A stretch of DNA of 64,000 nucleotides from Escherichia coli (GTDB lineage Bacteria > Pseudomonadota > Gammaproteobacteria > Enterobacterales > Enterobacteriaceae). Positions 40,135 to 41,265 of this stretch are shown here, piece by piece. The position numbers and the translations under genes were made by a program. The stretch lies in NCBI RefSeq assembly GCF_003018255.1, contig NZ_CP027440.1. The stretch is one strand, 5' to 3'. Under the pieces are notes generated by a model. That model had not been told where the DNA came from, made no database searches, and was given only the letters and a program-made list of their open reading frames with translations. How positions within the stretch are numbered: the stretch's first letter is position 1; each line of letters starts with the position of its first letter.

Positions 40135-41265
40135 TTAGAACTGGTAAACCAGACCCAGAGCTACGATGTTATCAGTGTTGATGCCAGCGTCACGAGTGAA
40201 CTGGTTGTCGTCCAGCAGGTTGATTTTGTAGTCAACATAGGTGGACATGTTTTTGTTGAAGTAGTAGGTCGCACCAACATCAACATATTTCAGGATATCT
40301 TCGTCGTCGTAGTTACGACCATTGATGACACCCAGGTTTTTACCTTTAGACTGCAGGTAAGCCAGGGACGGACGCAGACCGAAGTCGAACTGGTACTGAG
40401 CAACAGCTTCGAAGTTCTGTGCTTTGTTCGCCCAACCCAGGGAACCTACGCGAGTTGCGTTGTAGGTCTGGGTGTACTGAGCAGCCAGGTAGATGTTGTT
40501 AGCGTCGTATTTCAGACCACCAGTGTAGGTTTCAGCACGGTCACCAGTACCGATGTAGTTACGGACCACATTATTGTCGCTTACATAGGTACCATTCTGA
40601 GCGTCAGTACGTTTGGAGCTGGACACTGCAGCACCGATACCGAAGCCTTCGTAATCATAAGTGATAGAACCGCCAACGCCGTCGCCGTTCTGACGCAGAG
40701 CACCACGACCGTTGTTGGTCATGCCTTCGCCATCTACGCTACCGTTTTTACCCTGGTACTGAACAGCAAAGTTCAGGCCGTCAACCAGACCGAAGAAGTC
40801 GGTGTTACGGTAGGTCGCGAAGCCGTTACCACGCTGCTGCATGAAGTTGTCAGAACCGTAAGTGTCGCCACCGAATTCTGGCAGGACGTCGGTCCAGGAA
40901 GTTACGTCATAAACAACGCCGTAGTTACGACCGTAGTCGAAAGAACCCACATCCTGGAATTTCAGACCTGCGAATGCCACACGGGTCCAGGAGTTGTTTT
41001 CGTTTTCAGCGCTGTTGCCCTGGATCTGATATTCCCACTGGCCGTAACCGGTCAGTTGGTCAGTAACCTGAGTTTCACCTTTGAAGCCAAGACGCATGTA
41101 GGTCTGGTCGCCATCTACAGACTTGTCGTCAGAGAAATAGTGCAGGCCGTCTACTTTACCGTACAGATCTAATTTGTTGCCGTCTTTGTTGTAAACTTCA
41201 GCAGCGTTTGCTGCGCCTGCTACCAGCAGAGCTGGGACCAGGAGGGACAGTACTTTAACTTTCAT
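40135..41265 (-). CDS. ompC: outer membrane porin OmpC (loop-variant allele)
   Basis: 376 aa; signal peptide [21 protein letters not shown]; conserved barrel strands and C-terminal ...ALGLVYQF; several loop segments differ from the K-12 sequence as I recall it. Confidence 0.95.

Follow-up and report, generated by a model that had tools for sequence, protein, structure and literature searches.

A catalogued OmpC allele with the loop combination c7/b4/e in an Escherichia coli chromosome

The 64,000-nucleotide stretch of Escherichia coli DNA analysed here (hereafter the window) carries a gene that is, with a probability of about 95%, the chromosomal ompC, encoding the general porin OmpC in the form of a naturally occurring and catalogued allele, WP_000865549.1, with the loop types c7/b4/e. 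The allele is real but ordinary and already known, and the hypervariability of the ompC loops has itself long been known.

The ompC locus and the porin family

The gene was shown to be intact, correctly placed and accompanied by conserved expression signals. The order ada-apbE-ompC-micF-rcsD in the window is the b2213-b2216 arrangement of K-12, the ompC-rcsD intergenic region has the same length in both (738 bp), the C-terminus LGLVYQF, with its aromatic end, is that of K-12, and a four-way DNA alignment of the window with K-12, NC101 and O157 shows no difference among them over the 170 nt that precede the ATG. The features of the locus and of the encoded protein are collected in Table 1.

Table 1. 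Positions of ompC, its sequence features and its neighbours in the window
Feature	Position	Strand	Description and basis
ada	37830-38894	(-)	
apbE/ftp	38968-40023	(-)	
Intrinsic terminator hairpin 3' of ompC	40097-40116	(-)	AAAGGGCCTGCGGGCCCTTT, then T run; terminator scan and sequence reading
ompC CDS	40135-41265	(-)	ATG start, 376 codons and a single stop; ORF list
L7, type e	40300-40338	(-)	GVIN insertion as in O157:H7 OmpC, plus G318N vs K-12; K-12 NL----GRG, window NLGVINGRN (4-aa insertion and 1 substitution)
L5, type b4	40540-40611	(-)	exceeds the L5 of K-12 and of O157 by 9 aa; K-12 QN-TAA-YIGN, window with 9-aa insertion and 4 substitutions vs K-12
β10 changes			G212A and I214V vs K-12
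L4, type c7	40693-40749	(-)	K-12 NPSGEGFTSGVTNNGRD; window with 5 substitutions and without the K-12-specific GFTS (deleted)
L3, pore-constriction loop with PEFGG, residues 115-140	40846-40923	(-)	No amino acid differences from K-12 or O157
L1, SDDKSVD	41113-41133	(-)	N47D and D49S vs K-12
Signal peptide, residues 1-21	41203-41265	(-)	Identical to K-12; K-12 alignment
ompC 5' UTR, promoter and presumed OmpR-binding region	41266-41444	(-)	Four-way DNA alignment
micF sRNA gene, divergent from ompC	41599-41692	(+)	Rfam RF00033, 116.8 bits vs gathering score 79, full length
micF terminator hairpin	41664-41686		Terminator scan
rcsD	42004-44676	(+)	

Two positions of the ompC upstream region, 41436 and 41447, vary among strains; the former is C in the window, T in K-12 and O157, and A in NC101. 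Both are taken here to lie in or beside the OmpR box C1 (TTTACATTTTGAAACATCTA in K-12), with 41436 placed inside C1, the assignment of boxes C1-C3 presumably following the K-12 ompC promoter layout; variation at this presumed C1 box could slightly tune the affinity for OmpR. On the micF side, position 41681 in the terminator stem is G in the window, NC101 and O157 and A in K-12, and with G the stem of the MicF terminator (AACCGGATGCCTCGCATCCGGTT) is paired throughout.

With the NCBIfam model for porin OmpC (NF007841), the window protein reaches 757.4 bits (cutoff 484) over residues 1-376, whereas the OmpF model (471.9, cutoff 583) and the PhoE model (447.6, cutoff 599) both stay under their cutoffs; the Pfam model PF00267 (Porin_1) is matched with 467 bits over positions 1-337 of its 337. 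Residues 22-376 align to solved OmpC trimers (9wcb, 2xe1, 2j1n) with E values down to 4e-221, and the solved mature OmpC chains begin at residue 22 of the window protein. By homology over the whole mature chain, the 16-stranded β-barrel trimer fold can be inferred with near-certainty; the AF2 model, built from only 9 near-identical sequences, reached a mean pLDDT of 28 and a pTM of 0.21. From knowledge of the family, the protein would function as an osmoregulated trimeric general-diffusion porin.

Elsewhere in the window, the rcsB-rcsC intergenic region contains a match on the (-) strand (45353-45429) to the Rfam family naRNA4 (nucleoid-associated ncRNA 4, REP-derived), with 70 bits (gathering score 59.5). 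Directly downstream of a tRNA-Pro gene (18449-18525), the annotation of the collinear JNE23-011 genome places a frameshifted and truncated autotransporter β-barrel pseudogene at 18657-19410 (-), which has the appearance of a degenerate relic at a site linked to a tRNA gene.

Differences from K-12 and O157:H7 OmpC

The reference for K-12 was b2215 of NC_000913 (367 aa; PDB 2J1N; loops a1/a1/a), which has 15 of the 16 strands, the locus organisation and the proximal promoter in common with the window. Strands and loops were delimited after S1 Fig of Beck et al. (2016), a segmentation that tiles the window protein exactly and whose numbering was checked against the alignment; the loop numbering was also drawn from PMC12892980. 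In the alignment, 14 codons are substituted, a further 19 differ synonymously and there are 3 indels; L1, L4, L5 and L7 hold 12 of the 14 substitutions together with all the indels. The concentration of substitutions in these loops exceeds chance, since 12 of 14 fall in 50 of the 342 aligned positions (hypergeometric P = 2e-9), and P = 6e-5 when all eight loops are pooled. The signal peptide, L2, L3, L6, L8, the C-terminus and all strands, save two positions of β10, are identical to K-12. SDDKSVD, the sequence found in L1, is the majority form of that loop, present in 10 of the 12 alleles aligned in S1 Fig of Beck et al. (2016; PMC5056734).

The preliminary description of the window had proposed an OmpC of 376 aa, against 367 aa in K-12, and this holds against the actual K-12 sequence: the changes of -4 (L4), +9 (L5) and +4 (L7) add up to +9 aa, so that the two lengths are correct. 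Its view that the allele departs from K-12 in extracellular loops agrees with the alignment, which did not return identity to K-12 OmpC; the DDKSVDGD segment that it located near residue 46 occupies residues 46-53, and the peptides quoted as divergent internal segments are present at 175-192, 229-242 and 312-323. The statement that signal peptide, strands and C-terminus match K-12 stands for all of these with the exception of G212A and I214V in β10. By contrast, what it took for an insert-containing region is the L4 segment, which is 4 aa shorter than in K-12 owing to the missing GFTS, the extra length coming from L5 and L7.

O157:H7 OmpC (WP_000865552.1; c2/a6/e) resembles the window protein in L1, in the absence of GFTS, in the AAV of β10, in the GVIN of L7 and in the rest of the barrel, and differs from it by S178D and E188G in L4, by a short L5 (SPL), and by D222A and N240T. 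In its L4, L5 and L7 types, the PDB chain 9wcb_A agrees with O157:H7 OmpC.

A known allele and its frequency

A direct comparison of translations showed the window protein to be the same as that of NC101 and JNE23-011 over all 376 residues, and the OmpC products of NC101, JNE23-011 and DETEC-S792 are all annotated as WP_000865549.1 in RefSeq. At the nucleotide level, ompC is 100% identical in 3 complete genomes of 5,426 (DETEC-S792, JNE23-011 and JNE112863) and 99.6% identical in NC101, NGF1, M-17, PSUO2 and about 30 others. NC101, which has the identical protein in the same genomic context, differs from the window by 5 nt in ompC, all of them synonymous, at third codon positions and within its 3' half, and by about 1% in the flanks. 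At least 1000 public contigs encode the exact protein, which is named "porin OmpC" in the public protein collection (UniRef A0A1Q4PIL1_ECOLX).

The survey of Beck et al. (2016; PMC5056734) covered 2,707 E. coli OmpC proteins with more than 220 distinct sequences, and resolved their diversity into 33 types of L4, 30 of L5 and 13 of L7, combined in many ways. The L4, L5 and L7 of the window match types c7, b4 and e of that survey verbatim, the strings of its S2 Table all being present; in its type table the representative of b4 is NC101 WP_000865549.1, and in its S1 Table c7/b4/e is listed for NC101 (entry 109), MS 16-3, TA206 and several KTE strains (PMC5056734).

The loops differ widely in frequency. 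The 5,426 complete E. coli genomes were searched with 78-nt patches spanning each loop: the L7 patch (40282-40359) was at least 99% identical in 1,599 of them, O157:H7 included, the L4 patch (40681-40758) was at least 99% identical in 200, and the L5 patch (40531-40608) was matched exactly in 35, all of them 100% identical. At blastn sensitivity, the long "b" family of L5 was found in 602 genomes; in the other long-L5 genomes among the blastn matches listed, as in types b1-b3 and b5-b10 of Beck et al., L5 is one codon shorter than b4.

Origin of the L5 tip and mosaicism of the locus

The ST1193/KTE205 OmpC (WP_001539019.1; c7/b1/e) has the same L1, L4 and L7 as the window and, with GTYVVD-NVTHNY, an L5 tip that is one codon shorter. 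The two alleles agree at every nucleotide of the first 654 nt and differ at 3 of the final 402 nt, whereas in L5 12 of 69 nt and one codon differ (Fisher P = 4e-13 for L5 compared with the 3 differences in the other 1056 nt), and the changed L5 codons include 5 synonymous ones. Divergence of this extent, together with the 5 synonymous codons, points therefore to an imported diverged segment and not to point mutations accumulated in place. The tip of L5-b4 thus looks like a short-patch recombination of about 40 nt in an otherwise ST1193/KTE205-type allele, and such an imported patch fits the view of Beck et al. of modular loops, under which E. coli shuffles its surface loops as modules via recombination. 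A degenerate-codon scan for the L5 peptide in one genome per species (GTDB r220) gave no match, a result that is uninformative as to where the patch came from.

The chromosome around ompC is mosaic as well. Compared with the window, DETEC-S792 is 100% identical in ompC, 99.85% in rcsD, 99.5% in apbE and only 95.9% in ada, and this sharp step in identity between ada and apbE suggests that a boundary of recombination lies near ompC. Over all 64 kb the window aligns collinearly and without gaps to E. coli JNE23-011. Of the 297 mismatches, about 230 lie in the yejM-tRNA-Pro-narP-ccm-nap region (~16000-32000) and 33 at 37000-39200, in ada and the 3'-terminal part of apbE, while most other kilobases have fewer than 5 and smaller clusters occur at ~54 kb and ~61 kb; such clustering suggests recombination patches between close relatives. 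The alignment of DETEC-S792 with the window stops right after rcsD (beyond position 44700 of the window), and the place held by rcsB in the window is taken in DETEC-S792 by a gene for an autotransporter peptidase of the S6 family (SPATE-type), a difference attributed to an insertion or rearrangement in DETEC-S792.

Recognition by phages and by contact-dependent inhibition

The loops in which the window protein differs from K-12 are the epitopes of phage receptor-binding proteins and of class II CdiA toxins. The idea of the preliminary description that OmpC loops bear on susceptibility to phages and bacteriocins is backed, for phages and for bacteriocin-like systems, by published work with PP01, T4 and CdiA-EC536 on sister alleles, and by analogy with these an altered recognition of the window allele by phages and by contact-dependent inhibition (CDI) is plausible. 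For PP01, the GVIN of L7 is essential for the adsorption of gp38 to O157 OmpC, one loop of gp38 enters the cleft between L5 and L7, and substitutions of single residues in the short L5 of O157 are tolerated (PMC12892980). This adsorption has been shown for O157 OmpC only, with which the window protein shares GVING, but its L5 is 9 aa longer; as the longer L5 borders the L5-L7 cleft, it may hinder the binding of PP01-type gp38, with an uncertain outcome.

With regard to T4, unpublished data cited in PMC5221442 indicate that the phage cannot use O157 OmpC and that a Phe in the L4 of K-12 is required for its adsorption. Since the Phe of the K-12 L4 is missing from the window protein, as it is from O157 OmpC, the window protein is predicted not to be a receptor for wild-type T4 and should not serve its gp37.

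Recognition by CdiA-EC536 is determined by L4 and L5, and the A42H allele conferred resistance to CDI-EC536 (PMC5056734). A42H OmpC is identical to the c7/b1/e protein of KTE205 at 351 of 354 positions, and since this nearest tested allele, with the same L4 and L7 and a sister L5, is resistant, the window OmpC is probably not recognised by CdiA-EC536, resistance being the best guess. Contact-dependent inhibition fits the OmpC loops better than the role of colicin receptor assigned to them in the preliminary description, for which, as a specific role, no support was found; among bacteriocin-like systems, it is the one documented to use these loops. No experiments on NC101 OmpC or on the window allele came up in the literature searched, the phage paper on NC101 being concerned with LamB.

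The L5-b4 segment occurs in 0.65% of the complete genomes and is byte-identical across several different chromosomal backgrounds. A speculative reading, considered rather unlikely, is that L5-b4 might spread horizontally as an escape cassette, blocking gp38-type adhesins of the L5/L7 cleft or class II CdiA effectors; if it were true, the allele would have a distinct and predictable resistance spectrum.

Alternative explanations

Since L3 and the barrel wall are unchanged, the pore properties should be near those of K-12, and both transport function and regulation are expected, as inferred from the sequence, to be K-12-like. Against this it could be held that the differences from K-12 reflect antibiotic-driven porin remodelling, with changes to the charge or the constriction of the pore like those of clinical resistance variants of OmpC or OmpK36, and not surface-epitope variation. 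The solved structures do include OmpC variants of a clinical series with altered drug permeation (2xe2, 2xe3, 2xe5, 2xg6), and G212A and I214V sit in a barrel strand; nevertheless, these two changes are conservative and are common to the O157, ST1193 and C9 alleles of unrelated backgrounds, L3 and all other strands are the same as in K-12, and the remaining changes are all in the external loops L1, L4, L5 and L7, all of which makes remodelling very improbable and argues for variation of surface epitopes.

Readings of the gene as a porin paralogue (OmpF, PhoE, OmpN or phage-borne), or as a non-functional or misassembled copy instead of a functional ompC, have next to no probability. Cross-matching paralogues do exist, as indicated by the megablast median of 2 matching places per genome, but the synteny with apbE, micF and rcsD and the sub-cutoff scores of the OmpF and PhoE models speak against a paralogue; the intact ORF, the signal peptide, the C-terminal YQF, the conserved upstream 170 nt and the terminator speak against a non-functional copy, and the presence of the identical gene in 3 independently finished genomes against a misassembly. 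On synteny and family scores, a paralogous porin, a pseudogene and an assembly artefact were ruled out. That the allele of this functional chromosomal ompC should be novel or unique to the window genome is hardly conceivable either: its rarity among complete genomes, with a 100% identical gene in only 3 of 5,426 and the L5 patch in only 35, and the lack of any GTDB species-representative genome encoding the L5 peptide would be in keeping with novelty, yet the protein is identical to the WP_000865549.1 of three named strains, its exact sequence recurs on public contigs in at least a thousand instances, and the c7/b4/e combination has been tabulated since 2016. The candidate of a novel allele was thus refuted by exact-sequence matches.

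Significance

As the allele, the modular polymorphism of the loops and their link to phages and CDI have all been published, no new biology follows from the gene, and its value for the window is one of annotation only: the strain carries an NC101-type OmpC (c7/b4/e). In a wider context, OmpC loop alleles help to decide which T-even-type phages and which CDI systems can attack a strain, and knowledge of these loops is relevant to the choice of therapeutic phages and to competition among gut E. coli.
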